From Candidatus Moraniibacteriota bacterium (GTDB taxonomy: Bacteria; Patescibacteriota; Minisyncoccia; Moranbacterales; UBA1568): 64,000 nucleotides of DNA. Below are positions 2,069-36,487 of this stretch, piece after piece. Made by a program: the position numbers and the translations under genes. Every line of letters starts with the position of its first letter. Position 1 is the stretch's first letter. The stretch lies in assembly GCA_028688415.1 (NCBI GenBank), contig JAQTYF010000001.1:144627-208626 (forward strand), read 5' to 3'. The notes under the pieces are model-generated. The model ran no database searches, was not told where the DNA came from, and saw only the letters and a list, made by a program, of their open reading frames with translations.

Positions 2069-2867
2069 ATTTTTTTCTATATCTTATAAGTCTGCCTTCA
2101 GCTTGTTTTATTAAATTTGTATTATTTCTTATATGAGTAACTCGCCAGATCCAAAAGTCGATACCGGCAAATATAATCCAATCTTTCGCTTCTTTTCCCA
2201 GTGTAAGTGATGTTTGCCCGATTTTATTATATTCATGTATGAAGTGTTTGAGTCCAGTTAAAGTTTGAAGAGGTATTAGTCCAGACCAATAGAGTTTTGC
2301 GATATCAAAATAAGGAGAAGAATATGTTGCTTCATCGAAGTCAATCAGAAAGATTTCCCCTGAAACTTTGCGTAAATTGGAGAGGGTTATATCGCCATGC
2401 GTTAAAGAAGATGTACTTTTTGATTTTGTATAGCGACTGATACGTTTGATAAGTTGATGAATATCTATATCTATTATTTTTTTGATATCTGTGGCGTGTT
2501 GTTGTAAATGTCGAAATCTCTTTTCAATGAGTCTTCGAGGAGTCTGTTTTTTGATTTTGTGTAAACGAGAGAGCGTTTGAGCCAAAGATGTTACATCGTT
2601 TTTTGTGAAAGATCGGAGTCCTGTTCCTACAGATGTCATAATGATGTAGGGCCTTCCTTCTGTCGATCCATTTTTGATAAATTTTGGCATGTAATCAAAT
2701 CCAGAATTGAAAGCAGAAATTTCAGATTTATAGTAGGATTTTTCGGAATAAATTTTAAGGATAAGGCCATGTTTTTTGTCTTGATAGACATCGTTAGCGA
2801 AGCCACCTTTACGCACGGTGAAGCCCTCCGGTATGTGAGATATATTTGTTAGGTTATTTGCTTTCAT
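2058..2867 (-). CDS. aminoglycoside/choline-kinase-like phosphotransferase (APH family)
   Basis: HGDITLSNL catalytic loop (HGDxxxxN) and LIDFDEA (Mg-binding DxD-like) typical of APH/ChoK protein-kinase-like fold. Confidence 0.6.
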   Translation of the reverse strand: MKANNLTNISHIPEGFTVRKGGFANDVYQDKKHGLILKIYSEKSYYKSEISAFNSGFDYMPKFIKNGSTEGRPYIIMTSVGTGLRSFTKNDVTSLAQTLSRLHKIKKQTPRRLIEKRFRHLQQHATDIKKIIDIDIHQLIKRISRYTKSKSTSSLTHGDITLSNLRKVSGEIFLIDFDEATYSSPYFDIAKLYWSGLIPLQTLTGLKHFIHEYNKIGQTSLTLGKEAKDWIIFAGIDFWIWRVTHIRNNTNLIKQAEGRLIRYRKKYGH

Positions 2868-2917
2868 TGGTTTTTTATTATAGTATATACGTATTATTAT
2901 ATAATAAATACAGAATT

Positions 2918-3472
2918 ATGAATACGTCACTTTTTCATAGAATTCAGCAAGAAAAGGCTCCTGAGATCTTATTCCTCTTGGTTGAGATCAGTCAGGGTGA
3001 TTACAATAAATATGAGTATAACCATGATATTGGTGTCCTTGAAGTTGATCGTGTGCTCTATGGACCAATGTTTTACCCAATTAATTACTGCGATGTTCCA
3101 GGAACTTGGAACGATGGGGATAAAGACCCTCTTGATGCCCTTCTCTTTAGCAGCAAACCGATTGTTCCGGGCGCTATGGTTACAGGAAGAGTTATTGGTG
3201 CAATGGAGATGATCGATAATGGCGAAATTGATCATAAGATTGTTTGTGTAAATGCAAAAGATCCTCGCTTTGATCACGTGAAGAAGATTGAAGATCTGAC
3301 ACCGTATCAACGCAAAGATGTCGTAACCTTTTTTGAGCTTTACAAAATTCCTCAGACAGGTAAAGATACCACGACAGTTGGAAAGTTTATGGATTTTGAT
3401 GAGGCTGCTGTATTTATTCAGAAATGTATAGATGCATATAAAGAGAAATTCGGAAACATACAAGGTAATTAG
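2918..3472 (+). CDS. ppa: inorganic pyrophosphatase (family I)
   Basis: DYNKYEYNHDIG...YPINYCDVPGTWNDGDKDPLDALLF matches soluble PPase active-site signature (DGDPLDVLV region). Start chosen at ATG 2918, since the longer ORF overlaps the convergent kinase gene. Confidence 0.85.
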   Translation: MNTSLFHRIQQEKAPEILFLLVEISQGDYNKYEYNHDIGVLEVDRVLYGPMFYPINYCDVPGTWNDGDKDPLDALLFSSKPIVPGAMVTGRVIGAMEMIDNGEIDHKIVCVNAKDPRFDHVKKIEDLTPYQRKDVVTFFELYKIPQTGKDTTTVGKFMDFDEAAVFIQKCIDAYKEKFGNIQGN

Positions 3473-3480
3473 AATTCTTT

Positions 3481-4854
3481 ATGAACAGCGCTGACTTGCT
3501 TGATTTAGAGAAGAAGTATTGTTCTTACGGAGACACTGTTCATTACGCTGAAAATCCGAAGATTTTTTCACGATGTGAAGGATCATATCTTTTTGATGAA
3601 AAAGATATGAGATATTTTGATTTGCAAATGTGGTATTCCGCCGTTAACCTTGGTTATGCAAACAAGAATATAAACACCGCGGTGAAAAAACAGATTGATA
3701 CTTTACCCCAAATTGCATCACAATATCTTCATCAGGGAAAAATTGAACTCGCCGCACGCTTGTGTACGGAAACAGAAAAGCGATTTGGTGTGAAAGGACG
3801 GGTCCATTTTAACGTTGGTGGTGCGCAAGCTATTGAAGATGCTCTGAAACTTGTTCGAATGCGAACAAAAGCAAATGGAGTATTTGCTTTTATGGGAGGA
3901 TATCATGGGAGAACAATTGCAGCCTCCGCAATTACTTCTAGCTATCGATATCGAAGTCGTTTCGGTCACTTTGGTGATCGTGCATTTTTCGTTGAATTTC
4001 CTTACGCTTTTCGTTGTCCAGAAAAAGGTGTAGACATAACTGATTATTATATCAGCAAGTTCAAACGATTGTTTGAGACAGAATATCATGGCATTTATGA
4101 TAGCAGAGATGGCGCGTGTGAATATCGTGCATTTTTTGCTGAACCGATCCAGGGGACAGGTGGTTATATCATTCCTCCGAAAAATTTCTTTAAAGAATTA
4201 AAAAAAGTACTCGACCAATACGGCATTCTTCTTGTTGTTGATGAAATTCAGATGGGGTTTTATCGTACTGGAAAACTTTGGAGCATTGAACATTTTGACG
4301 TTGTTCCAGATATTATTGTTTTTGGTAAGGCACTTACAAATGGGTTAAATCCGCTCTCTGGGATTTGGGCAAAGGAAGGACTTATTGAACCAAGTGTATT
4401 TCCACCGGGTTCTACTCATTCAACTTTCGCTTCTAATCCTCTTGGTACTACAGCAGGATTAGCTACTCTTGAAGCTTTTGATAATTGGACTGATCGAGAG
4501 CGTGATATTGAAGGAAAGGGTAAATATTTTTTGAATAAGTTAAAACAACTGAAAGAGAAATTCCCACAGATTATTGGGGATGTAGATGGATTAGGACTTG
4601 CTCTTAGAATTGAGTTATGTGGAGATGATGGTCAGGTTCCGAGTAAAAAACGTGCTGATTTTATATTCAATGAGGGATTAAGGGGAGATCTTATATATGA
4701 CGGAAAACCAATTGGGCTTATTCTTGATATTGGTGGTTATTATAAGAATATAATAACTCTTGCACCGAACTTACTTATAACAGAAGACGAAATTGATATG
4801 GTGTCAGAGTTGCTTTCTCAATTGTTTGATAGAGTTAAAAAGAATGGGATATAA
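3481..4854 (+). CDS. class III PLP aminotransferase (acetylornithine/GABA aminotransferase family)
   Basis: VVDEIQMGFYRTGKLWSIEHFDVVPDIIVFGKALTNG matches class III signature (DEVQTGxGRTGxxxA...DIxxxxKxL) including the PLP-lysine. Confidence 0.8.
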   Translation: MNSADLLDLEKKYCSYGDTVHYAENPKIFSRCEGSYLFDEKDMRYFDLQMWYSAVNLGYANKNINTAVKKQIDTLPQIASQYLHQGKIELAARLCTETEKRFGVKGRVHFNVGGAQAIEDALKLVRMRTKANGVFAFMGGYHGRTIAASAITSSYRYRSRFGHFGDRAFFVEFPYAFRCPEKGVDITDYYISKFKRLFETEYHGIYDSRDGACEYRAFFAEPIQGTGGYIIPPKNFFKELKKVLDQYGILLVVDEIQMGFYRTGKLWSIEHFDVVPDIIVFGKALTNGLNPLSGIWAKEGLIEPSVFPPGSTHSTFASNPLGTTAGLATLEAFDNWTDRERDIEGKGKYFLNKLKQLKEKFPQIIGDVDGLGLALRIELCGDDGQVPSKKRADFIFNEGLRGDLIYDGKPIGLILDIGGYYKNIITLAPNLLITEDEIDMVSELLSQLFDRVKKNGI

Positions 4855-6151
4855 GTTAGTAGATTTTGAATCTTTCAATTCTTTAGCAAAGCAATCACGT
4901 ATTTTGCCAAAGCGATTATGTTTGCCAGGGCAAAATGTTTCTTGGCGCATTGGAAAAGAATCATACCAATTACCTTTTTCTAATAAAATAAGAGAAAGAC
5001 TTGCCTTACTTGGGATGCTCTGTAAGAAATATCATGATGCTGTTGAGGATCTTTTTTTTCATGATACAGAATTTAGGAAAAAAGTGAATATGTATCGAGA
5101 AAAATCATTTCTCGATAATTTTAATCGAGCTAAGGATTTATCATCTGGGAATATTTTTTATCGACCAGACTTGGTTATAACAGAAGATTCACAATTTAAA
5201 ATTGCTGAAATAGATGCTCTTCCTGGGGAGTTGGGTGTCCATAGTTTTTTATTGAATGCTTATGGGAGTTCTGTAAATAAGATTGTTCAATCTTTTGAAG
5301 ATGTATTGAAAAAATTTCAACTTTCACAGAGTATAGATTTTGTTATTGATTCTATAATTTCTGAAGATGAATATGTCGCTGAGTATACGTACCTTGCGAG
5401 CTGTTTGTCCAGATCAGATATTACAATGCGTATATATAATATTAACGAATATTCTGGTCCAGAAAGAGAAGGCGTCTTGGTTTATAGATTTTTTGATATG
5501 GTACGAAATAATCAGGTACAGATACACACTATTCTTGATCGAATTAAAGAAACTAAATCATATTTGTATCCACCAATAAAACATTATCTCGAGGAGAAGT
5601 TTTCATTAAGCTGTGTACACGATAAGAATGTAGAAACAATATTTTTGCGACATTTTACAAATGAAGAGCTGTCTCTTTTTAGAGATCTTCTGCCAAAAGT
5701 TCATTATCTCGATAAACAGAGTCGATTAATTTTTCCGCCGATTCAATATAATGGTAGTTCTGTAGTAAATTTTTCAGATCTGGCTTTGTTGGCGCCAAAT
5801 ATACCATATGTTCTTAAAACGAGTGCTTTCTCAGATCAATTTTCTACATCGAAAGGGGCTATTCTCTTAGAAGGGTTGTCAAAAGAACAGATAAATAGTT
5901 TACTCGAAGAACATATAAACAAGTTTGATGAACACTTTATATTGCAAGAAAAGATTACGCCACTCATTGTTGGCGTACAAGTGGTTGATTCGAATGGCAT
6001 AAACCAAGAAGTGAGGGGATTTTCGCGACTAACTCCTTTCTATTTTGTGCAAAAGAGAAAAATTGCACTTGTATCTTCTCATATAGTAATTCGAGAGAAG
6101 AATTTTGATGTTCATTTTGCTTCAGATTCTGTTGTTATACCGGCGTATTAA
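4844..6151 (+). CDS. hypothetical protein (435 aa), possibly an amide-forming ligase; unassigned
   Basis: Long ORF in frame with coding-like composition; ATG at 4844 overlaps the upstream stop (ATGGGATATAA). No motif recognised. Confidence 0.5.
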   Translation: MGYKLVDFESFNSLAKQSRILPKRLCLPGQNVSWRIGKESYQLPFSNKIRERLALLGMLCKKYHDAVEDLFFHDTEFRKKVNMYREKSFLDNFNRAKDLSSGNIFYRPDLVITEDSQFKIAEIDALPGELGVHSFLLNAYGSSVNKIVQSFEDVLKKFQLSQSIDFVIDSIISEDEYVAEYTYLASCLSRSDITMRIYNINEYSGPEREGVLVYRFFDMVRNNQVQIHTILDRIKETKSYLYPPIKHYLEEKFSLSCVHDKNVETIFLRHFTNEELSLFRDLLPKVHYLDKQSRLIFPPIQYNGSSVVNFSDLALLAPNIPYVLKTSAFSDQFSTSKGAILLEGLSKEQINSLLEEHINKFDEHFILQEKITPLIVGVQVVDSNGINQEVRGFSRLTPFYFVQKRKIALVSSHIVIREKNFDVHFASDSVVIPAY

Positions 6152-6156
6152 GAATT

Positions 6157-6828
6157 TCAAGATTTTTGAATGATTTGAAGTATTTCGTGGAAGTTTCTGA
6201 AAAGACAGGATTTTTTTTTCCTGTCGCGTAATAGTGTGAAAAGTTTCTCTTTTGCAAAAACGGTTGAACAGTGGCGAGCTCCTTCAATATCAGAAATTCC
6301 GTCGCCTATATAGATTGTATCGTTAGGATGAATAGGGATTGTTTTGATAATATGCTTGATAATTTGTGGTTTGCAATTTGCACAGACATTATTATGAATA
6401 CAAGGATATAAATCAGAAGAATCAGATAGTGGTATAAATTTTATCATTTTTTCGGACATAAATTTTATATCATTTGCGTAGATAGAAGTGAAATATATCT
6501 TGTGAATTGTGAGGAATTGTTCGATGAGTGTATTTATTCCATCGCTTATAATAAAGAGAGGGATGCCCTTGTCTTTACAAAATTGCGAGAATTCGATAAA
6601 ACCATTTTCTAGATGCAATTTACCCGCAAGATCAAAAATATCCGTAGCGTTCATTCTAATATTAGAGAATTGTTTTATAAGGCATTCTCTACTACCGATA
6701 GTGCCAGATGACCACTGCAGTTCAATATTTTTCCAGGTGTTGTCCACGCTGAACTGATTCAGTATTAAGTCTGTACTGTCTTCTTTTGCTATTGTCCCGT
6801 CAAAATCACAGAATATAGAATGTAACAT
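6157..6828 (-). CDS. HAD-superfamily phosphatase (subfamily IB, MtnX/phosphoserine-phosphatase-like)
   Basis: N-terminal FCDFDGTI (DxDGT motif I); IGDGISD near C-terminus (motif IV GDGxxD). Confidence 0.65.
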   Translation of the reverse strand: MLHSIFCDFDGTIAKEDSTDLILNQFSVDNTWKNIELQWSSGTIGSRECLIKQFSNIRMNATDIFDLAGKLHLENGFIEFSQFCKDKGIPLFIISDGINTLIEQFLTIHKIYFTSIYANDIKFMSEKMIKFIPLSDSSDLYPCIHNNVCANCKPQIIKHIIKTIPIHPNDTIYIGDGISDIEGARHCSTVFAKEKLFTLLRDRKKKSCLFRNFHEILQIIQKS

Positions 6829-7078: not shown

Positions 7079-8506
7079 ATGATGACACAAGATTTCAAGA
7101 AAGACGTTCGATTCGATAAGAAAATGCTCATAATCGGTGGTGGATTTATCGGACAAGGAGTCTTGCCTCTCATACTGAAACATATCGATATCAAGCCAGA
7201 GCAGATATCAATCATCACTGCTGACGAACGAGGCAAAGAAACAGCTGCCTATTACGGTATACCGTTTTCTATCAATCCGATTTCCAAAGAAAATTATCGA
7301 GAAGTACTTGATCCACTTCTCTCTCCTGGAGATTTCTTGCTCAATCTCTCATCTGATATAGAGAGTACGCTTATCGTGGATTTCTGTAGCGAACGAGGGA
7401 TACTCTATCTCGATACTTGTATCGACTCATGGCTTGGAGAAAGTACCAACCCAGCACTTTCTGTTTCACAGCGATCTCTCTACAAATTGCGAGAACAAGC
7501 TATCAAGCTCAAAGAGAAATGGGGGAATACAAATGCTACTTCGGTACTCGCTCACGGAGCCAATCCTGGTATTGTATCGCACCTCGTGAAACAAGCACTT
7601 CTCAATATTGCAAAAGATGAAGGAAGAGATGTAGTCATCCCACAAACGAGAGAAGAATGGGCACGCCTCTCCCAATCACTCGGGATCCGGGCTATCCATG
7701 TCGCAGAGCGTGATACGCAGATTCCTACAGAACGAAAAAAAGTAGGTGAATTCATCAATACCTGGTCTATCGATGGATTGGTCGGTGAAGGACTCCAGCC
7801 AGCAGAGCTCGGATGGGGATCGCATGAGAAACATCTCCCTGTCGATGGGAGTAGACACACGTTTGGTGATCAGTCTGCTATCTATTTGAACAAACCAGGA
7901 GCATCAGTACGTGTCCGCACCTGGCTCCCTCTCGCTGGTCCACAGATCGGATATCTCATCACACACAATGAAGCTATTTCCCTCGCGAGTTATCTGACTC
8001 TCGGAACAGGGGAGAATCCAGAATATCGTCCGACAGTACACTATGCTTATCACCCTTGTGATGATGCGGTACTTTCGATTACAGAACTCGAAGAATCCAA
8101 TTGGAAAATTCAGGAACAAAAACGATCGATCACTGATGAAATTGTTTCGGGTATAGATGAACTCGGTGTTCTCTTGATCGGGAACAAACAGGGTGTGTAC
8201 TGGTTCGGATCACGACTCGATATCCATACTGCACGACAGCTCGCGCCATACAATTCTGCGACATCACTGCAGGTAGCTGCCGGTGTCGTAGCGGGGATGA
8301 TATGGGCGATGCGTCATCCAGAGAGTGGGATAGTCGAAGCAGAAGAAATGGATTTCAGAGAAGTGCTCGATATTGCTAGTCCATACTGGGGAGAGCTCGT
8401 CGGCGAATACAGTGATTGGGATCCGACGATAGGACGGAACACCCTTTTTCCCGAAGATATCGATACAGAAGATCCCTGGCAGTTCAAGAATTTCCGCGTA
8501 GTATAG
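7079..8506 (+). CDS. hss: homospermidine synthase (saccharopine-dehydrogenase-like NAD enzyme)
   Basis: 475 aa; N-terminal Rossmann motif MLIIGGGFIGQGVLPLILKH and overall length/organisation match bacterial homospermidine synthase. GC (~50%) clearly above neighbours. Confidence 0.65.
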   Translation: MMTQDFKKDVRFDKKMLIIGGGFIGQGVLPLILKHIDIKPEQISIITADERGKETAAYYGIPFSINPISKENYREVLDPLLSPGDFLLNLSSDIESTLIVDFCSERGILYLDTCIDSWLGESTNPALSVSQRSLYKLREQAIKLKEKWGNTNATSVLAHGANPGIVSHLVKQALLNIAKDEGRDVVIPQTREEWARLSQSLGIRAIHVAERDTQIPTERKKVGEFINTWSIDGLVGEGLQPAELGWGSHEKHLPVDGSRHTFGDQSAIYLNKPGASVRVRTWLPLAGPQIGYLITHNEAISLASYLTLGTGENPEYRPTVHYAYHPCDDAVLSITELEESNWKIQEQKRSITDEIVSGIDELGVLLIGNKQGVYWFGSRLDIHTARQLAPYNSATSLQVAAGVVAGMIWAMRHPESGIVEAEEMDFREVLDIASPYWGELVGEYSDWDPTIGRNTLFPEDIDTEDPWQFKNFRVV

Positions 8507-8534
8507 GCATTTATTGAGAATTTATAGAAAAGAA
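8484..8534. repeat. 51-bp perfect direct repeat, copy 1 (covers last 7 codons and stop of hss)
   Basis: ttcaagaatttccgcgtagtataggcatttattgagaatttatagaaaaga is identical at 8484-8534 and 10502-10552. Confidence 0.9.
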
Positions 8535-8586: not shown

Positions 8587-8865
8587 CTAACTTGAATAAA
8601 TGTGGTTCTTTCTATTGAACCTCGATTCGCTTCCGCAGATACGAACAGACCCATAGTTACCCTTGTTGCGATAATTCATCATTGAATCTGTTATCTCTGG
8701 AAGTTGTATTTTGAAATCAGCACTAAACTGAGTTTCAGCATTTGGTGCCGAAAGCATCATATACAGATTTCTTTCTGCGTAGTGTAAAGGAACGATATTT
8801 CTCATCAGTATTCTCCTGGTTAATTCAGAATTTCGGAAGGATGGCAACTTTCTTATAGCATGCAA
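8587..8865 (-). CDS. hypothetical small protein (92 aa) inside repeat-flanked cassette
   Basis: ORF only; no motif. Confidence 0.2.
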   Translation of the reverse strand: MHAIRKLPSFRNSELTRRILMRNIVPLHYAERNLYMMLSAPNAETQFSADFKIQLPEITDSMMNYRNKGNYGSVRICGSESRFNRKNHIYSS

Positions 8866-8986
8866 TAGTTATTTTGTACAATAGCTAGTAGGGGTATTTG
8901 TAATATTTTCACAGATTGACGAAAAACCGTTCTTATGATATTGTTTTCTTGCCATTATATCAATGGTGTTTTTAGGAGAATATCTC

Positions 8987-9106
8987 ATGAAGCAAGGCCT
9001 TTTCGGTGGTTCTGGTGGTCACGGCAATGGAAATGGTGGCTCTGGTGGCCAACGTGGTGGCGGTGGCGGTAGCACCGGTGGCGGTTCCGGGACTCGTGGC
9101 AAATAA
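8987..9106 (+). CDS. glycine-rich small peptide (39 aa), MKQGLFGGSGGHGNGNGGSGGQRGGGGGSTGGGSGTRGK
   Basis: Not in the ORF track (<60 aa). AGGAGA RBS at 8974-8979, 7 nt before ATG 8987; TAA stop at 9104-9106; lies 55 nt upstream of the M16 peptidase gene. Confidence 0.35.
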   Translation: MKQGLFGGSGGHGNGNGGSGGQRGGGGGSTGGGSGTRGK

Positions 9107-9161
9107 GTTCATCTGCCAAATCGCGTAATCTGCCAGTATGGCCTCGATCATCATTGTGTGA

Positions 9162-10460
9162 TTGAGGCCATTTTATTTTTTCGATAAATACTCTATACTT
9201 CAAACTATGCAAGTATCTCATTTCGAAAATATACTCGAAGGGAAGGGAGGGAAGTTCCTTTCCATACACTGTCCACATCTGCAGGTGTCGATTGCTTCTG
9301 TATGGTTCGAAGCTGGTTCGATATATGATCCTTTGGGCAAAGAAGGATTGGCACATTTTTTCGAACATTTGCTCTTGCAGAAAACAAAAAAAGAGCCTTC
9401 TCGAACACAGAGACTCTATACTCTCGAATCTCGTGGAATAGATTTTTACGCCTACACGAACAAAGACTCAGCTTACTATTACCATATTCAAGAACCAGAG
9501 AAAACAAAAGAAAGCCTCGGATTACTCGCGCTTGGTATTGCAGACTTCGTTTTCGATGAAACCGATATCGAGAAAGAGAGAAATGTGATTCTTTCAGAGA
9601 AAGACACGTATGATGGAAATCGGGATGAGAAAGTGTGGGATTTTCTCTTCGATGGTTTGTATCATGGAAGTGTTTTTGCTCATAATCCGTTCGGAGATGC
9701 CCATTCGATTAGTTCTATTACGAAAGAAGATATAGAAAAATTTTATCGAGAATACTATAATCTCGAGAACGCTGTGTGGGTCATTCTCTCTCCGCAAGTA
9801 TCTGGTGCAGATGAGAAAATACATCTTGAGGAAACCTTACGTCCTTTTGTTGATGCAAGCGAGAAAGTGTCAATCGATCATGATGCGAGAGAAACAATGG
9901 GAAGTGTCCATGATCAGAGGATAGTTGCCTCATCAGAAGATACATCATTTCTCGTAGCTGAAGCATTTCGTACGACGGATATTTTTGATCAAGAAAATAT
10001 TCTTCGTATCGATCTTCTCCGTTCTATCATCGCCTCTGGGTGGATTTCTTGGGCAAATAAAATACTACGTACCGAGAAAAGTCTCATCTATTGGGCACGC
10101 AGTGTTTTCAGTCAATTTCATGATAGGGGATATGTAGCTTTCCTCTTTGATGTGCAAAATTCTTCCAAGACTGAAGCCATCACCCTCTTCGACAGATTGA
10201 TAGAAGATTCGAAGGATATCGAAAAAATGAGTGAACATCTGGATGCACACAAGAACGCTTTTGCAACACGATTTCTCCGCGTGTATCATAACCCAGAAGA
10301 TCTCTTGTGGTGGTATGGATACCCTGCTTTATTTGGTATTGTCAAAGAGTCTCCCAAAGAATATTTGCATCAACTGAAACAATTGAAAGCAGAAGAGCTC
10401 GTTTCTGTCGCAGAAAAAACTTTTACGAAGGAAAAGAGGAGTGTCATAGAGATTAGTTAG
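9162..10460 (+). CDS. M16-family zinc peptidase (pitrilysin/insulinase-like), active-type subunit
   Basis: HFFEH inverted zinc-binding motif (HxxEH) near the N-terminus, plus downstream glutamate-containing region typical of M16. Alternative start at 9207 (MQVSHF). Confidence 0.75.
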   Translation: MRPFYFFDKYSILQTMQVSHFENILEGKGGKFLSIHCPHLQVSIASVWFEAGSIYDPLGKEGLAHFFEHLLLQKTKKEPSRTQRLYTLESRGIDFYAYTNKDSAYYYHIQEPEKTKESLGLLALGIADFVFDETDIEKERNVILSEKDTYDGNRDEKVWDFLFDGLYHGSVFAHNPFGDAHSISSITKEDIEKFYREYYNLENAVWVILSPQVSGADEKIHLEETLRPFVDASEKVSIDHDARETMGSVHDQRIVASSEDTSFLVAEAFRTTDIFDQENILRIDLLRSIIASGWISWANKILRTEKSLIYWARSVFSQFHDRGYVAFLFDVQNSSKTEAITLFDRLIEDSKDIEKMSEHLDAHKNAFATRFLRVYHNPEDLLWWYGYPALFGIVKESPKEYLHQLKQLKAEELVSVAEKTFTKEKRSVIEIS

Positions 10461-10501: not shown

Positions 10502-10552
10502 TTCAAGAATTTCCGCGTAGTATAGGCATTTATTGAGAATTTATAGAAAAGA
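10502..10552. repeat. 51-bp perfect direct repeat, copy 2
   Basis: Identical to 8484-8534. Confidence 0.9.
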
Positions 10553-12787: not shown

Positions 12788-14512
12788 ATGGATTTTAATA
12801 TAATTACGAACAGTGAGATTTGTATTGCGAATACACAACAATACTTAACAGGACTCGTCTATTATTCTCATTTTCCGATGATCATACTGTCTTTATTTTT
12901 TGGATTTTTTGTATTTTTAAAAAATAAAAGTTCGTTAGCGTCAAAATGTTTACTGGGTATTACGTTCTTCTTTTCTTTATGGCTTGTTTTTGATTTTATT
13001 TTGTGGAAAAGTAGCAATAGTAGTTTGCTTATGTTTTCTTGGGCTATACTAGGTGTATTTGAAGCACTCTTTTTCATTCTAGGTTTATATTTTATATATA
13101 CATTCATTGATAAAAAAGATGTTTCCAATAGTATAAAATTCATTTTTTTACTTCTTTCTTTGCCAGTTCTCTTTCTGACTCCAACGACATTTAACTTATC
13201 AAATTTTGATATCATAAATTGTGTTCCCGTTGAATCAGGGATATCTTTGGACTACGTTATTTCTTTGAAATTGATTATTTTATTGTGGATTTTTATTCTG
13301 TTGATAGTGAAATACCGGAAGCCTCCTGTAGACATATCAAGATTACAAATTTTTCTGTTAGGTTTAGGTATAATGTTGTTTCTATCTTCGTATTTTGTTT
13401 TGTCTTACGTTTCTGATTATTTGTACAATGCAGGTTATGAATGGGGGTATCAGGTTGAACAGGGTGGAATTCTCGCTATGGGTATTTTTCTTGGGTTTCT
13501 TAGTTATCTCATCGTTAAATTCAAGGCATTTGATATCAAACTGATCGGAGCACAAGCGTTGGTGTTAACACAATTTGCCCTTATTAGCTCAATGTTCTTT
13601 TTTGCCACGGTACTTATAAGTCGCGTCCTCATTGGAGTGACACTCTTTGGTACGACTATTGCTGGTTGGTATCTGATCCGATCAGTGAAGGCAGAAATCA
13701 AACGCAAGGAAGAGCTCGAAAAGATATCGCATACACTGATGGTGGCGAATGAACGATTGAAAGAGCTCGATGCCGCCAAATCAGAATTCATCTCTATTGC
13801 ATCACACCAGCTCCGTACACCGCTCACGGCTATCAAAGGTTACCTCTCACTCTTGCTCGAGGGCTCCTATGGGCCAGTCTCTCCTCAGGTACTCGATATT
13901 CTGAACAAACTCTACGGTGTGAACAATCGTCTCGTCCATCTCGTGGAGGATCTGCTCAATGTCTCTCGTATCGAAGCAGGGCGTATCCAATACAGTTTTG
14001 CTCCGACACAGATCGAGCCTATCCTCGTTGAACTCGTCGATATGTTCCTTTCTCCAGCTCAAGAAAAGAATCTGACTATTGATATCCATCTCTCCAAGCA
14101 TCCGCTCCCTCTCATCACGATGGATCCAAACAAAATCAAAGAAGTGGTGTCCAACCTCATCGACAATGCAGTGAAATACACCAAAGTAGGTGGTGTGACA
14201 GTCACACTCCAGAACACGCCTGAGGTCGCCCGTATCATCATCTCGGATACTGGTATCGGTATTCACGAAAGTGACAAGAAGAACCTCTTCCAGAAATTCC
14301 TTCGAAGCAAGGAAACAACGAAAATGGTAGTCTCTGGAGCGGGTCTCGGTCTCTACGTCGGCAAGAGTTTTATCGAAGCACACGGAGGCAAGATCTGGGC
14401 AGAATCCGATGGTCCAGATAGAGGCTCTCGCTTCATCATCGAACTCCCGATCAAAAACACTCATATTCAGATCGGTACGTCTGATGAACCTACTTCTGTC
14501 GAAAAAGAGTAA
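12788..14512 (+). CDS. membrane sensor histidine kinase (multi-TM N-terminus, HisKA + HATPase_c)
   Basis: H-box SHQLRTPLTAIKGYLSLL; N, G1 and G2 boxes (DNAVKYT, DTGIGI, GAGLGL). GC rises in the kinase-domain half. Confidence 0.85.
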   Translation: MDFNIITNSEICIANTQQYLTGLVYYSHFPMIILSLFFGFFVFLKNKSSLASKCLLGITFFFSLWLVFDFILWKSSNSSLLMFSWAILGVFEALFFILGLYFIYTFIDKKDVSNSIKFIFLLLSLPVLFLTPTTFNLSNFDIINCVPVESGISLDYVISLKLIILLWIFILLIVKYRKPPVDISRLQIFLLGLGIMLFLSSYFVLSYVSDYLYNAGYEWGYQVEQGGILAMGIFLGFLSYLIVKFKAFDIKLIGAQALVLTQFALISSMFFFATVLISRVLIGVTLFGTTIAGWYLIRSVKAEIKRKEELEKISHTLMVANERLKELDAAKSEFISIASHQLRTPLTAIKGYLSLLLEGSYGPVSPQVLDILNKLYGVNNRLVHLVEDLLNVSRIEAGRIQYSFAPTQIEPILVELVDMFLSPAQEKNLTIDIHLSKHPLPLITMDPNKIKEVVSNLIDNAVKYTKVGGVTVTLQNTPEVARIIISDTGIGIHESDKKNLFQKFLRSKETTKMVVSGAGLGLYVGKSFIEAHGGKIWAESDGPDRGSRFIIELPIKNTHIQIGTSDEPTSVEKE

Positions 14513-16710: not shown

Positions 16711-17610
16711 ATGACCGAGCTAGAATCAATTAAAAAAATACGGTTTGTCCTTACGGATTTTTGTAATTATCAATGTAGATTTTGTCATAATGAAGGAACT
16801 CCAACAAAGAACACACGGTTTTTGGATAAGGAGAGTATTTTTTCGTTAACGAGTGTGGCTAAAGATTTAGGTATTAAAAAAATTACTCTAACAGGAGGCG
16901 AACCATTACTTCACCCAGAAATTGTAGCTATTGTAGACGGTATCAATGCTATATATCCAGAAGCTATCTTAGGGATGACAACTAATGGGATGTTATTTGA
17001 TAAAAATAAATTTGCTACGATTATTACTAATCTTAGTCGGTTACGTTTAAATTTTCAAAGTTTAGATGAAAAAGTTTTAAAATATATTTGTGGTAATGGC
17101 GCTAATATTAGTAAAGCGCTTTTGATGATTGATGACGTGAGGAAACTGAATCCTGATTTAAATATTTGTTTGAATTTTGTTTTAACAACTTATAACAAAG
17201 AATCACTTTCTGATGTTATAAAATTTGCAATTAAAAATAATCTAGATGTAAAATTGTTAGAGTATATGGCTCTCAATAAAGATCTTTATGTTGAAGTCAA
17301 ATATGCTAAAGATATATTAGAGTCTCTTCGACCTATTAAAAAGTATAAAGACTATCAGGACGATGATATTTATATGTTTACAGGATCTTCAAGTCGGATA
17401 CGTTTATGCTATTCATTTTGCAATGGTTTTAGATGTAAATCTTGTCGTGAATGTGGTGAAATTAGATTGGCACCAGGGTTAACCCTTAAGCACTGTTTTG
17501 ATGAGAGAATTGAAGAGGTTGATATTAGAAAAGAGTTGCTAGAACAGAATCTGGAATCAATAAAAAAGAAGATCATTTCAATTGATCAAATTAAGGGAAG
17601 ATTGCTCTGA
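16711..17610 (+). CDS. radical SAM enzyme, MoaA-like (GTP 3',8-cyclase family)
   Basis: CNYQCRFC (CX3CX2C) in TDFCNYQCRFC context like MoaA TDRCNLRCxYC; ITLTGGEPLL; MTTNGML; C-terminal CRECGEIRLAPGLTLKHC = CX2CX13C auxiliary-cluster motif characteristic of MoaA. Confidence 0.75.
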   Translation: MTELESIKKIRFVLTDFCNYQCRFCHNEGTPTKNTRFLDKESIFSLTSVAKDLGIKKITLTGGEPLLHPEIVAIVDGINAIYPEAILGMTTNGMLFDKNKFATIITNLSRLRLNFQSLDEKVLKYICGNGANISKALLMIDDVRKLNPDLNICLNFVLTTYNKESLSDVIKFAIKNNLDVKLLEYMALNKDLYVEVKYAKDILESLRPIKKYKDYQDDDIYMFTGSSSRIRLCYSFCNGFRCKSCRECGEIRLAPGLTLKHCFDERIEEVDIRKELLEQNLESIKKKIISIDQIKGRLL

Positions 17611-33096: not shown

Positions 33097-34749
33097 ATGG
33101 CAAAACAAACAAAGAAGACGAAGTATATTTTTGTGGTAGGTGGAGTGATGAGTGGTGTCGGAAAAGGTATTACCACTTCTTCTATCGGAAAAATCTTGCA
33201 GTCGCGTGGTCTCTCTGTAACAGCATTCAAGATCGATCCGTATATCAATGTCGATGCTGGAACGATGAATCCAACAGAGCACGGTGAAGTGTTCGTCCTC
33301 AAAGATGGCTATGAAACGGATCAGGATATGGGGAATTATGAGCGTTTCCTCAATATTGAGCTGAACCGAGACCACTATATGACGACAGGAATGGTCTACA
33401 AGTCAGTGATCGAACGTGAACGCAATCTCGAATACGCTGGCAAATGTGTCCAGGTCGTGCCTCATATCCCTCTCGAAGTCATATCTCGTATCAAGAAAAC
33501 CGCCAAGAAAGACAATGCTGATGTGGCTATCATCGAAATCGGAGGGACAGTTGGAGAATACGAAAACATTCTATTTTTAGAGGCAATTCGGATGATGAAA
33601 ATCGCCAGTCCGAAAGATGTTGCAACAGTGATGGTGAGTTTCATACCGACTCCATCGACGATTGGTGAAATGAAGACCAAGCCGACACAGCACGCCGTTC
33701 GGACGCTCAACGGTGCTGGTGTACAGGCAGATATCATCGTGGCTCGTGCCAGTCGACCGCTCGATGAGAAGCGCAAAGAAAAAATCGCTGTTTTCTGCAG
33801 TGTCCGGAAGGAGGATGTCATCAGTGCTCCAGATATAGAGAGTATTTATGACGTGCCACTCAATTTTGAAAAAGACCATCTCGGTATTATTCTTCTCGCA
33901 AAACTCGGACTGAAAACGAAGAAGCGAACACAAGATTTGAAAGAATGGGAGAAGGTGGTAGAGCGTATCCATCATGCGACTGACGCAGTCCATATTGGTG
34001 TCGTAGGGAAATATTTCAAGACAGGGGACTATGTACTGAGTGATGCCTATATCAGCGTCATCGAATCACTGAAACATGCTGCCTGCCAGATCGGCAAGAA
34101 AGCAGTACTTACGTGGATCGACAGTACCGATTTCGAAGAAAATGCTGGGGCTTTGTCAGGACTGAAACAGTATGATGGCATTATCATCCCGGGAGGTTTT
34201 GGTACACGTGGTGTCGAAGGAAAAATCGCGGTAGTAGAATATTGTCGCGAAAACAAAATCCCATATTTTGGGTTGTGTTATGGTATGCAACTCCTCGTGG
34301 TGGAATATGCTCGTCATATCCTCGATCTTGCAGATGCACACACGACCGAAGTCGCACCACAGACCAAGAATCCTGTTGTCGACATCATGCCCGAGCAGAA
34401 AGAGAATATGCGAAAGAAAAACTATGGTGCGACGATGCGTCTCGGACAGTATCTGGCGCATATCGTTCCGAAAACTATTGCGAGAGAGTCCTACGGTACC
34501 GATATGATACTTGAGCGTCATCGTCATCGCTATGAGGTCAATCCTGCTTATGTGGCGTCACTTCAAGAAGCAGGGCTCATCTTCTCTGCGACGTCTCCAG
34601 ACGGTGTGCTGATGGAAATAGCAGAACTTCCCAAGAAGCAACATCCATTTTTCCTCGCCACGCAGTTTCATCCAGAGTTCCAGTCTTCTCTCCTCCATCC
34701 TCATCCTTTGTTTGTTGCTTTTCTCAAAGCATGTATCAAGAAGAAATAA
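33097..34749 (+). CDS. pyrG: CTP synthase
   Basis: KYIFVVGGVMSGVGKGITTSSIG...DPYINVDAGTMNP...GNYERFL; glutaminase domain GLCYGMQ; 550 aa. Confidence 0.95.
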   Translation: MAKQTKKTKYIFVVGGVMSGVGKGITTSSIGKILQSRGLSVTAFKIDPYINVDAGTMNPTEHGEVFVLKDGYETDQDMGNYERFLNIELNRDHYMTTGMVYKSVIERERNLEYAGKCVQVVPHIPLEVISRIKKTAKKDNADVAIIEIGGTVGEYENILFLEAIRMMKIASPKDVATVMVSFIPTPSTIGEMKTKPTQHAVRTLNGAGVQADIIVARASRPLDEKRKEKIAVFCSVRKEDVISAPDIESIYDVPLNFEKDHLGIILLAKLGLKTKKRTQDLKEWEKVVERIHHATDAVHIGVVGKYFKTGDYVLSDAYISVIESLKHAACQIGKKAVLTWIDSTDFEENAGALSGLKQYDGIIIPGGFGTRGVEGKIAVVEYCRENKIPYFGLCYGMQLLVVEYARHILDLADAHTTEVAPQTKNPVVDIMPEQKENMRKKNYGATMRLGQYLAHIVPKTIARESYGTDMILERHRHRYEVNPAYVASLQEAGLIFSATSPDGVLMEIAELPKKQHPFFLATQFHPEFQSSLLHPHPLFVAFLKACIKKK

Positions 34750-34768
34750 AAAAATATACAATCCATAT

Positions 34769-36487
34769 ATGTCAAAAAACATACGGAATTTTATCGGAGT
34801 ATTGTTCCTGAGTTTTTTCATCTTCTCGCCGTCAGTACAGGCACGAGAGAATGTGACGGATTGGTATGTGAAAGATTTTCGGGAAGAATTTGTCCTTTCG
34901 ACTGATTCTACAATGACGGTGACAGAATGGATTACGGCAGATTGTGGTCAGGCAATCGGAAAACATGGTATTTTTCGTGTGGTTCCGACGAAAACAACAC
35001 TCGTTTCAGGAGAGATCATCGATCATCCTGTGACACTTATCGGTATCACGGATTTCCAGGGACATCCTTACAAATTTGAGACCACAAACGATCGAAGCAA
35101 CGGAACGGTTACCTGGAAGATTGGTGACAAAGAAAGAACGGTTACTGGAGAGAATACATACAAAATTGTTTATACAGTAGAAAATATCATTCGATTTTCG
35201 AATCAGGCATTCGACGAATTCTACTGGAATGTTGTCGGAAATTTCTGGGTCATGGATATCGATGCTTTCGAGGCAACGATCATTTTTCCTGAAACAATCA
35301 AACAAGATGTTATTAATCTCTCATATTATACCGGAATGCGTGGATCCAAAGATTCTCGTCTCGTACGGTCTTCTTGGAAAAATGACCACTCACTTTCTCT
35401 GATAGCGAACCAATCATTTGCCCCGGGCAACGGTGTCACTCTCTCTGCGAGCGTACCAAAGAATCTTTTTGTTCCGTACCAGTTTGGTTTCTGGAAATTG
35501 TACGGTGAATATTTCTGGCTTTTCCTCCCTCTTTCTGTTTTTCTTTTCTGTTACCGTCTTTGGAGAAAGTATGGCGATGATCCGACGTGGAATAAGGTTG
35601 TCATACCGGAATATGAAATGCCAGAAAATTTGGGCGTGTTTGAGATGGGGATGCTTATGGATAATGGCATTTTCGATAATAAGTTCGTAACAGCAAGTAT
35701 CATCGAACTTGCAGTGAAGGGGGCTCTCAAAATACAAGAACAAGAGAATAAGATTCTTTTCTTTACAATAAAAGAGTTCGTGTTGGAGAAACAACCAACA
35801 GCAGGAATCACTCTTCATTCGTATCAAAAAATTCTTTTTGATACACTCTTCAAATCTGGTGATCAAGTGAAGCTTTCATCGCTCAAAAATACATTTTATC
35901 AAGCACTGGATATTCTGCAAAAAACAGTGATTCATTCACTGACAACAAAAGGACTTATCGAGAAGAAAGGACTTTCATATCGGACATGGTTCGTGATGGG
36001 AGGAGCATTTCTTTTTGTAATTTTTTATGGAGCGTTTTCTGGTCTAGCTCTTTTTTCTGGAATTGCAAGTGGTGTTCTTTTGATTTTTTTTGCAAGAATT
36101 ATGCCGAAGCGAACAGAAAAAGGAGTGGAAGTAAACTGGAGGATCCAAGGTCTGAAATTGTACATGAACACAGCAGAGAAACATCGACAACAATTTTACG
36201 AAAAAGAAAATATCTTTGAAACACTGCTTCCATGTGCCATCGCTTTCGGTATGACCAAAGAGTGGGTCAAAAAAATGCAAGATATCTATGGTGAAACATA
36301 TTTCTCAGAGTATCATCCGGCATGGTTTGTTTCGAGTACTATCGGAAATTTTGATGTAGAGAGTTTTCATTCCTCTCTCGCAACACTCTCATCGAGTATC
36401 GCTTCGAATACAGGCGGTTCTTCGGGATCAGGGGGATCGGGTTCTTCAGGCGGAGGAAGTGGTGGTGGAGGCGGTGGAGGATGGTAA
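34769..36487 (+). CDS. DUF2207-like membrane protein with signal peptide and C-terminal Gly/Ser-rich tail
   Basis: Signal-like MSKNIRNFIGVLFLSFFIFSPSVQA; TM segments mid-protein; tail GGSSGSGGSGSSGGGSGGGGGGGW. Confidence 0.55.
   Translation: MSKNIRNFIGVLFLSFFIFSPSVQARENVTDWYVKDFREEFVLSTDSTMTVTEWITADCGQAIGKHGIFRVVPTKTTLVSGEIIDHPVTLIGITDFQGHPYKFETTNDRSNGTVTWKIGDKERTVTGENTYKIVYTVENIIRFSNQAFDEFYWNVVGNFWVMDIDAFEATIIFPETIKQDVINLSYYTGMRGSKDSRLVRSSWKNDHSLSLIANQSFAPGNGVTLSASVPKNLFVPYQFGFWKLYGEYFWLFLPLSVFLFCYRLWRKYGDDPTWNKVVIPEYEMPENLGVFEMGMLMDNGIFDNKFVTASIIELAVKGALKIQEQENKILFFTIKEFVLEKQPTAGITLHSYQKILFDTLFKSGDQVKLSSLKNTFYQALDILQKTVIHSLTTKGLIEKKGLSYRTWFVMGGAFLFVIFYGAFSGLALFSGIASGVLLIFFARIMPKRTEKGVEVNWRIQGLKLYMNTAEKHRQQFYEKENIFETLLPCAIAFGMTKEWVKKMQDIYGETYFSEYHPAWFVSSTIGNFDVESFHSSLATLSSSIASNTGGSSGSGGSGSSGGGSGGGGGGGW

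Follow-up and report, generated by a model that had tools for sequence, protein, structure and literature searches.

We analyzed a 64,000-nucleotide stretch of DNA from Candidatus Moraniibacteriota bacterium (assembly GCA_028688415.1, contig JAQTYF010000001.1, positions 144,627 to 208,626, forward strand), hereafter called the window, in which a short glycine-rich peptide gene lies next to a zinc peptidase gene. The features of the locus, in window coordinates, are as follows.

8483..8533, no strand: left copy of a perfect 51-nt direct repeat, overlapping the last 24 nt of the saccharopine-dehydrogenase-like gene 7079-8506
8587..8805, minus strand: 72-aa ORF with an AGGAG site, an orphan and a doubtful component of the cassette
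8916..8944, plus strand: promoter-like site (TTGACG, 17-nt spacer, TATTGT) upstream of the peptide gene
8974..8978, plus strand: Shine-Dalgarno sequence AGGAG, 8 nt before the ATG
8987..9106, plus strand: gene for the 39-aa glycine-rich peptide MKQGLFGGSGGHGNGNGGSGGQRGGGGGSTGGGSGTRGK (ATG at 8987, TAA at 9104-9106)
9138..9181, plus strand: intrinsic-terminator-like hairpin (14-bp stem, 6-nt loop) followed by TTTATTTTTT, between the two genes
9207..10460, plus strand: active-type M16B zinc peptidase, 417 aa
10502..10552, no strand: right copy of the 51-nt direct repeat, 41 nt after the M16 stop codon

The two repeat copies bracket a 1968-bp insert, and the 96% relative L011 has a diverged version of the right copy at the same place. 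The promoter-like site matched the consensus at 9 of 12 positions and is identical in L011; however, its function is inferred only, and the number of such sites in the region does not exceed that in shuffled sequences. The hairpin, which was not mentioned in the first-pass annotation, has a folding energy of -22.8 kcal/mol (z = -2.6). The 72-aa ORF showed no Pfam, NCBIfam or PADLOC hit, its only database hit was an identical copy on a 2028-bp contig, and it is absent from the other peptide-M16 loci. Rfam and tRNA scans of the window found nothing.

The downstream protein matched Pfam Peptidase_M16 (3.7e-21) and Peptidase_M16_C (3.4e-10), both above their curated cut-offs. It carries the inverted zinc motif HFFEH at residues 50-54 and EKERNVILSE at residues 122-131, and H50, E53, H54 and E131 are invariant in 38 members of its clade. 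Its closest solved structures are MPP-beta and bacterial M16B enzymes. It therefore has the sequence features of an active subunit of MEROPS M16 (pitrilysin/insulinase), subfamily M16B, whose dimerization into a clamshell is inferred here. A tblastn search with this protein found no second M16 gene in the window, and single M16 genes are the rule in related loci. Thus, the gene is not half of an adjacent M16B pair of active and inactive subunits, an arrangement that had been set beforehand as grounds for rejecting the RiPP- or secreted-peptide-like reading of the pair.

A conserved peptide family

We first examined whether the small ORF is a real gene. The peptide recurs next to M16 genes that are only 47-76% identical, and in those loci (L006, L009 and L001) a 33-residue core is 97-100% identical at the amino-acid level, although synonymous sites are near saturation (pS 0.57-0.79). 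This indicates purifying selection on a real gene, and the observation made in the first-pass annotation, a glycine-rich 39-aa peptide gene with a good ribosome-binding site immediately upstream of an HxxEH M16 peptidase within a repeat-flanked cassette, is confirmed. Of the 39 codons, 21 encode Gly, and 19 of these are GGT or GGC, against 49% in the large ORFs of the window.

Next, we searched for further members by protein searches and by degenerate-DNA pattern scans that did not depend on M16. The scans gave 47 distinct cores in Patescibacteria, Proteobacteria, Bacteroidota, Verrucomicrobiota and Planctomycetota, and the family as a whole is found in at least six bacterial phyla. The core, GGSGGHGxGNxGSGGQ[SR]GGxGGS[ST]GGG[ST]GxRG-x-stop, always ends one residue before the stop codon, whereas the N-terminal extensions are variable and only 2-10 residues long. 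The family appears to be undescribed: the peptide had no hit in Pfam at E <= 10, in NCBIfam at E <= 1 or in PADLOC, core motif strings were absent from 8 million full-text papers apart from chance matches and primers, and keyword searches of the literature found nothing relevant. A scan of IMG/VR viral contigs with the family pattern gave 0 hits, so that the family is not obviously phage-borne. An AlphaFold model from the peptide alignment gave a pLDDT of 55 and no secondary structure, and the peptide is therefore predicted to be disordered. A polyglycine-II bundle, as in snow-flea antifreeze protein, was considered from composition only and was dropped. We also considered an ATCUN-type GGH metal site; however, His is present in 45 of 51 cores and is not invariant, and this idea was likewise dropped.

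Peptidase genes beside the peptide

Of the 47 distinct cores, 31 lie beside a peptidase gene. Eighteen of these partners are M16, and the others are C39-like/DUF3335, ClpP-like, trypsin-like, YgjP-like or M78. The C39-like partners, which lie directly downstream in at least 6 lineages, are stand-alone proteins of 199-229 aa with no transporter domain. The remaining 16 cores have no recognizable peptidase nearby, although several of those contigs are short. The orientation also varies: M16 is convergent with the peptide gene in L009, ClpP is divergent in 4 lineages, trypsin is upstream in L031, and no same-strand downstream gene is present in L013, L019, L033, L048 and L079. Nevertheless, the ORF followed by a terminator and then a peptidase, all on one strand, is the commonest layout, and a hairpin plus T-run with unrelated sequences occupies the same position in 17 of 21 non-redundant peptide-M16 loci. 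Neither the breadth of the family nor the exchange of the partner between unrelated peptidase classes was visible in the first-pass annotation, which rested on the window alone.

The peptide-linked M16s from Patescibacteria and Gammaproteobacteria form one clade, separated by a clear score gap from other M16s, and the Gammaproteobacterial modules nest among the Patescibacterial ones. In several loci the peptide gene has decayed while the M16 gene stays intact: the same frameshift occurs in four samples (L002-L005), a 3' remnant remains in L090, and L001 has a start frameshift. Other loci carry XRE/ImmA, ParA-like and transposase-like neighbors, the last two labels being our reading of the protein sequences. 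Together with the repeats that bracket the cassette in the window and the nesting of the modules, these neighbors are the basis on which we infer that the module moves.

We then asked whether any other gene recurs. Clustering of 476 neighbor ORFs from 77 loci showed no recurrent enzyme other than peptidases, and no modification enzyme, exporter or immunity gene was conserved in any of about 57 neighborhoods. One M16 of the same clade (P0020, in locus L092) does sit beside YcaO, a dehydrogenase and a Gly/Cys-rich, microcin-B17-like precursor, but tblastn with this YcaO and dehydrogenase hit only L092 among 90 loci plus the window. The radical SAM gene at 16711-17610 is 7 kb away and does not recur. 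Histidine kinases near 5 loci and in the window (12788-14512) were judged possibly coincidental. The long antisense ORFs downstream of the peptide in the L014/L087 group (cluster C1) cover dispersed DNA repeats and were judged spurious. In L087 the peptide gene is one of three small ORFs that share a 5' element, and in Rhodobacterales it follows another conserved small basic ORF. No signal peptide was evident by eye in the peptide or in the N-terminal sequences of the partner peptidases.

The first-pass annotation read the pair as RiPP- or secreted-peptide-like and noted a resemblance to class II microcin cores. This interpretation is only partly supported. The conservation of the small ORF holds, as does its recurrent pairing with an active-type HxxEH M16 in independent genomic contexts and phyla, and the L092 locus makes the idea of a peptide-processing M16 reasonable. 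On the other hand, the RiPP label is not supported, because no modification enzyme is conserved and the leader/core layout is lacking: many members have only 2-4 residues before the core (for example MSKGGSGG.. and MGGKGG.., both beside M16), and the C-terminal 33 residues are the conserved part. A linear azole (TOMM) assignment is not supported either, since the core has no Cys and YcaO is confined to L092. Nor is a class II microcin supported: there is no double-glycine leader with an exporter, no ABC exporter recurs, and the resemblance to microcin cores is compositional only.

A proposed role for the module

Based on these results, we propose that the cassette is a portable two-gene module. 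In this view, the first gene, with its own promoter-like site, strong ribosome-binding site, GGY-biased glycine codons and terminator, would make large amounts of a disordered, mildly basic peptide that stays in the cytoplasm and acts in trans. The second gene, probably expressed at a lower level by read-through of the terminator, would supply a cytoplasmic M16B clamshell peptidase, a type of enzyme that accepts only short unfolded peptides, and the peptide would be its cognate substrate. Because the family has essentially no leader, we read the cleavage as removal (turnover or antidote) rather than leader-type maturation, so that the peptidase would set or clear the level of an otherwise active peptide. 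The analysis itself establishes that the gene is real, that the family exists, that the peptidase linkage holds, that the M16 clade is dedicated to this peptide and that the terminator architecture is conserved. In contrast, the substrate relationship, the direction of the reaction and the relative expression are inferred, as are catalysis by the M16 and any activity of the peptide.

We hold this reading only tentatively, with a probability of roughly 0.45. The peptidase linkage is far above expectation, and the peptide and its neighboring peptidase probably work together. The replacement of one catalytic class by another argues that what matters is proteolysis of a shared substrate, not a particular fold, and the varied orientation points to a functional association rather than a cis effect. 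However, the substrate relationship rests on gene neighborhood alone, and relative expression on sequence signals only. The 16 cores without a recognizable peptidase imply that the peptide functions without a linked one in some genomes, and intact M16 genes beside dead peptide genes suggest that the M16 also has peptide-independent work. In addition, the near-invariance of 33 residues is more than a mere protease substrate needs, and it implies a binding partner or structure that this explanation does not identify.

An extension of this view, which we consider unlikely, is that the peptide is a new kind of intracellular effector, a hydrophilic, disordered, nearly invariant 33-residue glycine-rich peptide that binds a universally conserved cellular machine, and that the adjacent peptidase, of whatever class, is its antidote. 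The two would then form a horizontally mobile toxin-antidote or stress-switch module of a type not described before, in which the neutralizing partner is a protease and the effector is too short to be annotated. The evidence for this is only indirect, namely two-gene portability and loss of the peptide gene with retention of the peptidase.

Among the alternatives, maturation of an exported, bioactive peptide survives best, although it also seems unlikely. Here the M16, or elsewhere a C39-like enzyme, would trim a precursor whose product, perhaps modified by enzymes encoded elsewhere, would leave the cell and act on competitors or hosts. M16, C39 and serine peptidases are all used as leader peptidases in RiPP pathways (PMC10885120). 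A layout of structural gene, terminator and processing enzyme is typical of bacteriocin loci. The L092 locus fits this idea, and several N-termini have an aromatic or Leu residue just before the core (GLFGG, GIFGG, EYGG, LYGG) that could mark a cleavage site. Against it stand the absence of recurrent modification, export or immunity genes and of an evident signal peptide, the lack of a leader in many members, the C39-like partners without a transporter domain, and a nearly invariant core, whereas RiPP cores are usually the variable part.

Somewhat less likely is the absence of any biochemical link, in which an abundant small hydrophilic stress or housekeeping protein is merely co-inherited with a general-purpose peptidase, for example on the same mobile fragment or in the same stress regulon. 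The 16 unlinked cores, the small-ORF neighbors in L087 and Rhodobacterales, and the persistence of M16 without the peptide would fit this. However, peptidases are only a few per cent of bacterial genes, and adjacency to five or six unrelated peptidase families in 31 of 47 lineages, across phyla and in otherwise unrelated neighborhoods, is very unlikely without a functional tie. The dedicated clade of M16 partners also speaks against it.

A cis-acting leader, in which translation of the ORF senses Gly-tRNA supply or arrests the ribosome and thereby controls terminator read-through, is less likely still. It would be favored by the common co-oriented layout, by conservation confined to about the last 33 residues before the stop codon, roughly the length of the ribosome exit tunnel, by the GGY bias and by the retention of M16 when the ORF decays, and scavenging peptidases induced by amino-acid shortage would make physiological sense. 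However, no antiterminator signal was found: pairing between the 3' end of the ORF and the 5' arm of the terminator was weaker than in shuffled controls in all 16 loci tested (mean z = +0.96). The hairpin starts 9-34 nt after the stop codon, mostly too far for a terminating ribosome to mask it, and the convergent, divergent, downstream and stand-alone arrangements do not fit a leader. Classical attenuation is not supported by this test of pairing. Finally, the reverse model, in which the peptide is a decoy or antitoxin restraining a toxic peptidase, was rejected because the peptide gene is dead in lineages with an intact M16.

We also compared the module with known systems. RiPP precursor and M16 pairs (PqqA with PqqF/PqqL; SboA with AlbE/AlbF; the class III lanthipeptide PttA with PttP1/PttP2) likewise link a short, separately and probably more strongly expressed peptide gene to an M16 that acts on it, although the action on the peptide and the relative expression are inferred here. 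However, they are defined by modification enzymes (radical SAM, lanthipeptide synthetase) and a leader/core layout, neither of which is present here; AlbE/F and PttP1/P2 are two-subunit M16 pairs, whereas here there is a single active-type gene; and NCBIfam PqqF scores 34 bits against a cut-off of 320. In microcin B17 and other linear azole-containing peptides (McbA, YcaO cyclodehydratase, TldD/E leader removal), a Gly/Ser-rich peptide is handled by a chambered metallopeptidase that accepts unfolded peptides, as we infer here; but this family has no Cys, no YcaO or dehydrogenase, no 26-residue leader and no McbEFG-type export or immunity genes, and its peptidase is M16, not TldD/E. Double-glycine bacteriocins processed by C39 domains share the C39-like partner of some lineages and an abundance of GG sites, but they differ in having an ABC transporter, a 15-25-residue amphipathic leader and variable cores. 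The logic that we propose is that of a small abundant protein with a dedicated clearing protease, as in Bacillus SASPs with the germination protease GPR, or a toxin and its antidote: a highly expressed protein, active as made, whose gene can be lost while the protease remains. There is, however, no sequence or fold relationship, any toxic or protective role of the peptide is hypothetical, and no known toxin-antitoxin type uses a peptidase as the antidote to a hydrophilic 36-40-residue peptide. Attenuation leaders (hisL, trpL, pheL) and arrest peptides (TnaC, SecM) share a short ORF enriched in one amino acid, a following terminator and conservation anchored to the stop codon; here, however, no alternative antiterminator was found, non-glycine residues are conserved at the protein level, and the gene also occurs divergent, convergent or alone.

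If our reading is right, it cautions against labeling a peptide-plus-M16 pair as a RiPP locus without a modification enzyme. It would also mean that there is a widespread bacterial small protein that current annotation largely misses: an exhaustive search of 1.84 billion representative proteins returned only 17 hits at E ≤ 0.001, and most of the family members among them are mis-extended ORFs, although the peptide is conserved across phyla to a degree normally seen only in core machinery. Its link to interchangeable peptidases gives an immediately testable biochemical hypothesis, and it would assign a function to a whole clade of ‘predicted Zn-dependent peptidases’ in candidate-phyla-radiation genomes, where few genes have known roles.

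The peptide-M16 locus and the conservation of the small ORF

We first re-examined the sequence around the peptide gene and its neighbor. The features found in this part of the window are as follows.

8483-8533, left copy of a perfect 51-nt direct repeat, supplying the last 24 nt of a saccharopine-dehydrogenase-like gene
8916-8944, promoter-like site (TTGACG, 17-nt spacer, TATTGT)
8974-8978, AGGAG, 8 nt upstream of the ATG
8987-9106 (+), peptide gene, reading MKQGLFGGSGGHGNGNGGSGGQRGGGGGSTGGGSGTRGK followed by a stop codon
9138-9181, perfect 14-bp hairpin with a TTTATTTTTT tail, starting 32 nt after the stop codon
9207-10460, M16 gene, starting 25 nt after the hairpin
10502-10552, right copy of the 51-nt direct repeat, which would encode MNFKNFRVV-stop

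The M16 gene product has both Pfam M16 domains, the HFFEH motif and the EKERNVILSE zinc-ligand motif, and no signal peptide is evident by eye in its N-terminal sequence. The observation made in the first-pass annotation, namely that a Gly-rich 39-aa peptide gene lies immediately upstream of an active-type M16 peptidase gene, was thus confirmed. That annotation had also named a standard paired M16B processing peptidase with a separate partner as a finding that would count against its reading; however, a tblastn search showed no second M16 in the 64-kb window, so this objection does not apply.

The two copies of the direct repeat bracket 1968 bp, which contain the two genes and an orphan 72-aa ORF on the other strand, and no integrase or transposase lies inside. 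Given that the left copy is the 3' end of the saccharopine-dehydrogenase-like gene, the cassette looks like an insertion that duplicated the 3' end of that gene. The only database hit to the 72-aa ORF sits on a 2028-bp contig. This length equals 1968 + 2 x 30, as expected if a k=31 assembly broke at the same repeat in another sample. The only other glycine-rich stretch in the window is in the region of 36422 on the + strand (..GGSSGSGGSGSSGGGSGGGGGGGW, the C-terminal tail of the ORF at 34712-36487), and it is unrelated to the peptide family.

Next, we traced relatives of the M16 to their contigs to determine whether the small ORF is conserved. Locus L006, whose M16 is 47% identical, encodes MKNGLFGGSGGHGHGNGGSGGQRGGGGGSTGGGSGTRGK upstream, in an unrelated gene neighborhood, whereas locus L009 (M16 76% identical) encodes MKNQVCYGGSGGHGNGNGGSGGQRGGGGGSTGGGSGTRGK downstream of the M16, in convergent orientation. 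Locus L011 (96% identical) carries the identical gene. Over the 33-codon core, the window differs from L006 at 23 of 29 synonymous sites but by only a single amino acid, and it differs from L009 at pS 0.57 with no amino-acid change. This is protein-level purifying selection in the + frame. In addition, 90% of the glycine codons are GGT or GGC, as compared with 49% in the large ORFs of the window.

A family of glycine-rich peptides and its gene neighborhoods

To investigate whether the peptide has further relatives, we conducted a protein search with the 47-aa extended ORF and found seven small proteins with the same core. An exhaustive profile search of 1.84 billion representative proteins showed only 17 hits at E ≤ 0.001, and most of the family members among them are ORFs that have been extended upstream by gene callers. 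In other words, the true 33-45-residue genes are mostly not annotated. We therefore scanned DNA directly with a degenerate pattern for G-S-G-G-Q-x-G-G-x-x-G-S-x-G-G-x-x-G-x-R-G. In GTDB contigs (one genome per species), the pattern matched 28 stretches, of which 25 are small ORFs and three are chance hits inside a large Ignavibacteria protein. In metagenomes it matched 46 stretches, of which 41 are family members, and in IMG/VR viral contigs it matched none.

Table. Distribution of the 25 GTDB loci.
Patescibacteria: 14
Gammaproteobacteria MAGs: 3
Rhodobacterales isolates (Yoonia, Jannaschia, Pararhodobacter): 3
Bacteroidota: 2
Verrucomicrobiia: 1
Tepidisphaerales: 1
Unclassified: 1

Positions that were not fixed by the pattern are also conserved: His at -28 in 45 of 51 cores, Asn at -24 in 40 of 51, and Thr or Ser at -6 in all. 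Every member ends exactly one variable residue after an invariant Arg-Gly. Pfam, NCBIfam and PADLOC have no model for the peptide, motif strings from it were absent from the full-text literature searched, apart from chance matches, and AlphaFold predicted no structure. The family is apparently undescribed.

We then clustered 476 neighboring ORFs from 77 loci and annotated the clusters with Pfam. Only loci found by the pattern scans were counted, so that the count is unbiased with respect to M16; these contain 47 distinct cores.

Table. Genes adjacent to the peptide gene, by number of distinct cores.
M16, same strand, 60-150 nt downstream: 18, one of which is also found beside a C39-like gene
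Stand-alone C39-like cysteine peptidase, directly downstream: 5
ClpP-like serine peptidase, divergent: 4
Trypsin-like peptidase: 2
YgjP-like metallopeptidase: 1
M78/ImmA-like peptidase: 1
No recognizable peptidase (several contigs are short): 16

Peptidases make up only a few per cent of bacterial genes, and 31 of 47 is therefore far beyond chance. In contrast, no modification enzyme, exporter or immunity-like gene recurs among these neighborhoods, and tblastn with a YcaO and a dehydrogenase found them nowhere but in locus L092.

Other neighbors were also observed. In four Patescibacteria lineages (loci L034, L036, L043/L046 and L066), the gene directly downstream of the peptide encodes a conserved 114-121-aa protein (MKK..KHKYPLVRVVWRDSN.YRFQDS..) with no Pfam or PADLOC hit, and an XRE-type HTH gene lies upstream; this protein may be another, unrecognized partner. 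In locus L050, a 278-aa ORF starting ~570 nt downstream of a long-N-terminus variant of the peptide encodes a protein with an HEFMH (HExxH-like) motif and no Pfam hit, which may be yet another metallopeptidase partner. Rhodobacterales (loci L018 and L033) carry a second conserved small ORF, MSRANDDYRRGY[HY]QGKGR[RQ]DGSR, directly upstream of the glycine-rich peptide gene, within the ~120 nt that precede it. In a lineage without a peptidase neighbor (locus L087, 2780-4100; also L014, 2182-2658, and L058, 6500-9200), whose relative L023/L088 is from a Verrucomicrobiia MAG, the peptide gene is the first of three units of about 430 nt. These units share a 5' element of about 90 nt (..GGTGGTAAAAA..CTCGACGGTAGTAAGATTG..CGCGCTCGCAAGA), and each is followed by a different small hydrophilic ORF. 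The element showed no Rfam or tRNA match, and it may be a shared promoter or regulatory RNA for a set of small proteins. Histidine kinase genes lie within 0.1-4 kb of the peptide gene in the window (12788-14512) and in four other lineages (L022, L025, L057 and L072/L076), which may be coincidence or may hint at signaling. Finally, an array of six or seven tRNA genes (Asp, Asp, Pro, Arg, Asn, Phe) lies at 3887-5303 of locus L047, about 3 kb from a peptide gene.

The M16 clade and the intergenic hairpin

We also compared the peptide-linked M16s with M16s from the databases, which fall into two groups. The database proteins P0001-P0021 are at least 36% identical to peptide-linked M16s (at least 269 bits), whereas all others score 158 bits or less. 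In a neighbor-joining tree, the peptide-linked M16s from Patescibacteria and two Gammaproteobacteria form one clade, with locus L020 as the single exception. From this tree alone, the organism of the window is inferred to be probably a member of the Patescibacteria. H50, E53, H54 and E131 are invariant in all 38 members, and E124 is present in 37.

Three further members of the clade were checked. P0007 has a divergent peptide (MGKNGSGGSGSGNAGSGGGNSGGTGIRNGGRGK) and a terminator upstream, and P0010 has only a 3' remnant of the peptide (..FGSGGGTGTRGK) and a terminator. P0020 lies in L092 (1-6344), where the M16 at 2501-3844 is beside a YcaO gene (4588-5940), a dehydrogenase gene (3831-4580) and a 69-aa Gly/Cys-rich precursor of microcin-B17 type (6026-6235), on the minus strand. 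The sequence of this precursor is MNTENKVESFKQPQPDPDAKELIDGPIFGASCGGSCGGGNCGSGCAGGGGQGGGGNCGGGCNGCMVHKE, and L092 is a microcin-B17-like linear azole peptide locus that may use an M16 as its leader peptidase. In the lineage of P0004 (loci L002-L005), the peptide gene carries the same deletion and frameshift in four independent samples, and in locus L001 the start is frameshifted. The peptide gene therefore decays repeatedly while the M16 stays intact. The frameshifted ORF of L002-L005 (for example, L002, 5852-6001) reads through the terminator hairpin and ends in TAATG, overlapping the M16 start codon, which would couple M16 translation to the remnant ORF.

A stable hairpin followed by a T-run lies within about 70 nt of the stop codon of the peptide gene in 17 of 21 non-redundant peptide-M16 loci, although the hairpin sequences are unrelated. 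To test for an attenuator, we scored the pairing between the preceding 72 nt and the 5' arm of the terminator. The pairing was weaker than in shuffled controls in all 16 loci tested (mean z = +0.96), and the hairpin starts 9-34 nt after the stop codon.

Interpretation of the peptide-peptidase linkage

Taken together, the analyses show that the small ORF is a real gene under strong constraint, that it belongs to a new and widespread family, that it is linked to peptidases of interchangeable class, that its M16 partners form a dedicated clade with intact catalytic residues, that the terminator-separated architecture is conserved, and that the module is portable. What we infer from these results, and only tentatively, is that the peptide is the substrate of its neighbor. 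Because there is no leader, exporter or modification enzyme, and no signal peptide is evident, we further infer that the peptidase removes an intracellularly active peptide rather than maturing an exported one. The interpretation in the first-pass annotation, which took the locus for a RiPP/secreted-peptide-like pair, is therefore only partly supported: the pairing with an M16 peptidase holds, but the RiPP or microcin label is not supported.

We also considered other possibilities. RiPP- or microcin-like maturation seems unlikely but keeps some weight, because of L092 and because these peptidase classes are known to act in leader removal (PMC10885120). Mere co-inheritance of the peptide and peptidase genes also seems unlikely, since it is contradicted by the breadth of the peptidase association. 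A cis-acting leader fits the stop-anchored, roughly tunnel-length conservation, but it is contradicted by the variable gene orientations, the stand-alone copies and the negative antiterminator test. The reverse model, in which the peptide restrains a toxic peptidase, is excluded by the lineages with a dead peptide gene and a live M16.

The coupling of a small peptide gene to a peptidase is known in general. This family, however, is not known as far as the searched libraries show, and neither are its lack of a leader or modification enzyme, the swapping of peptidase classes around an invariant peptide, or the dedicated M16 clade. Thus, although the arrangement varies on a familiar theme, there is a real chance that it is something categorically new. 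The extreme conservation of a peptide that is predicted to be disordered implies that the family has a conserved partner.
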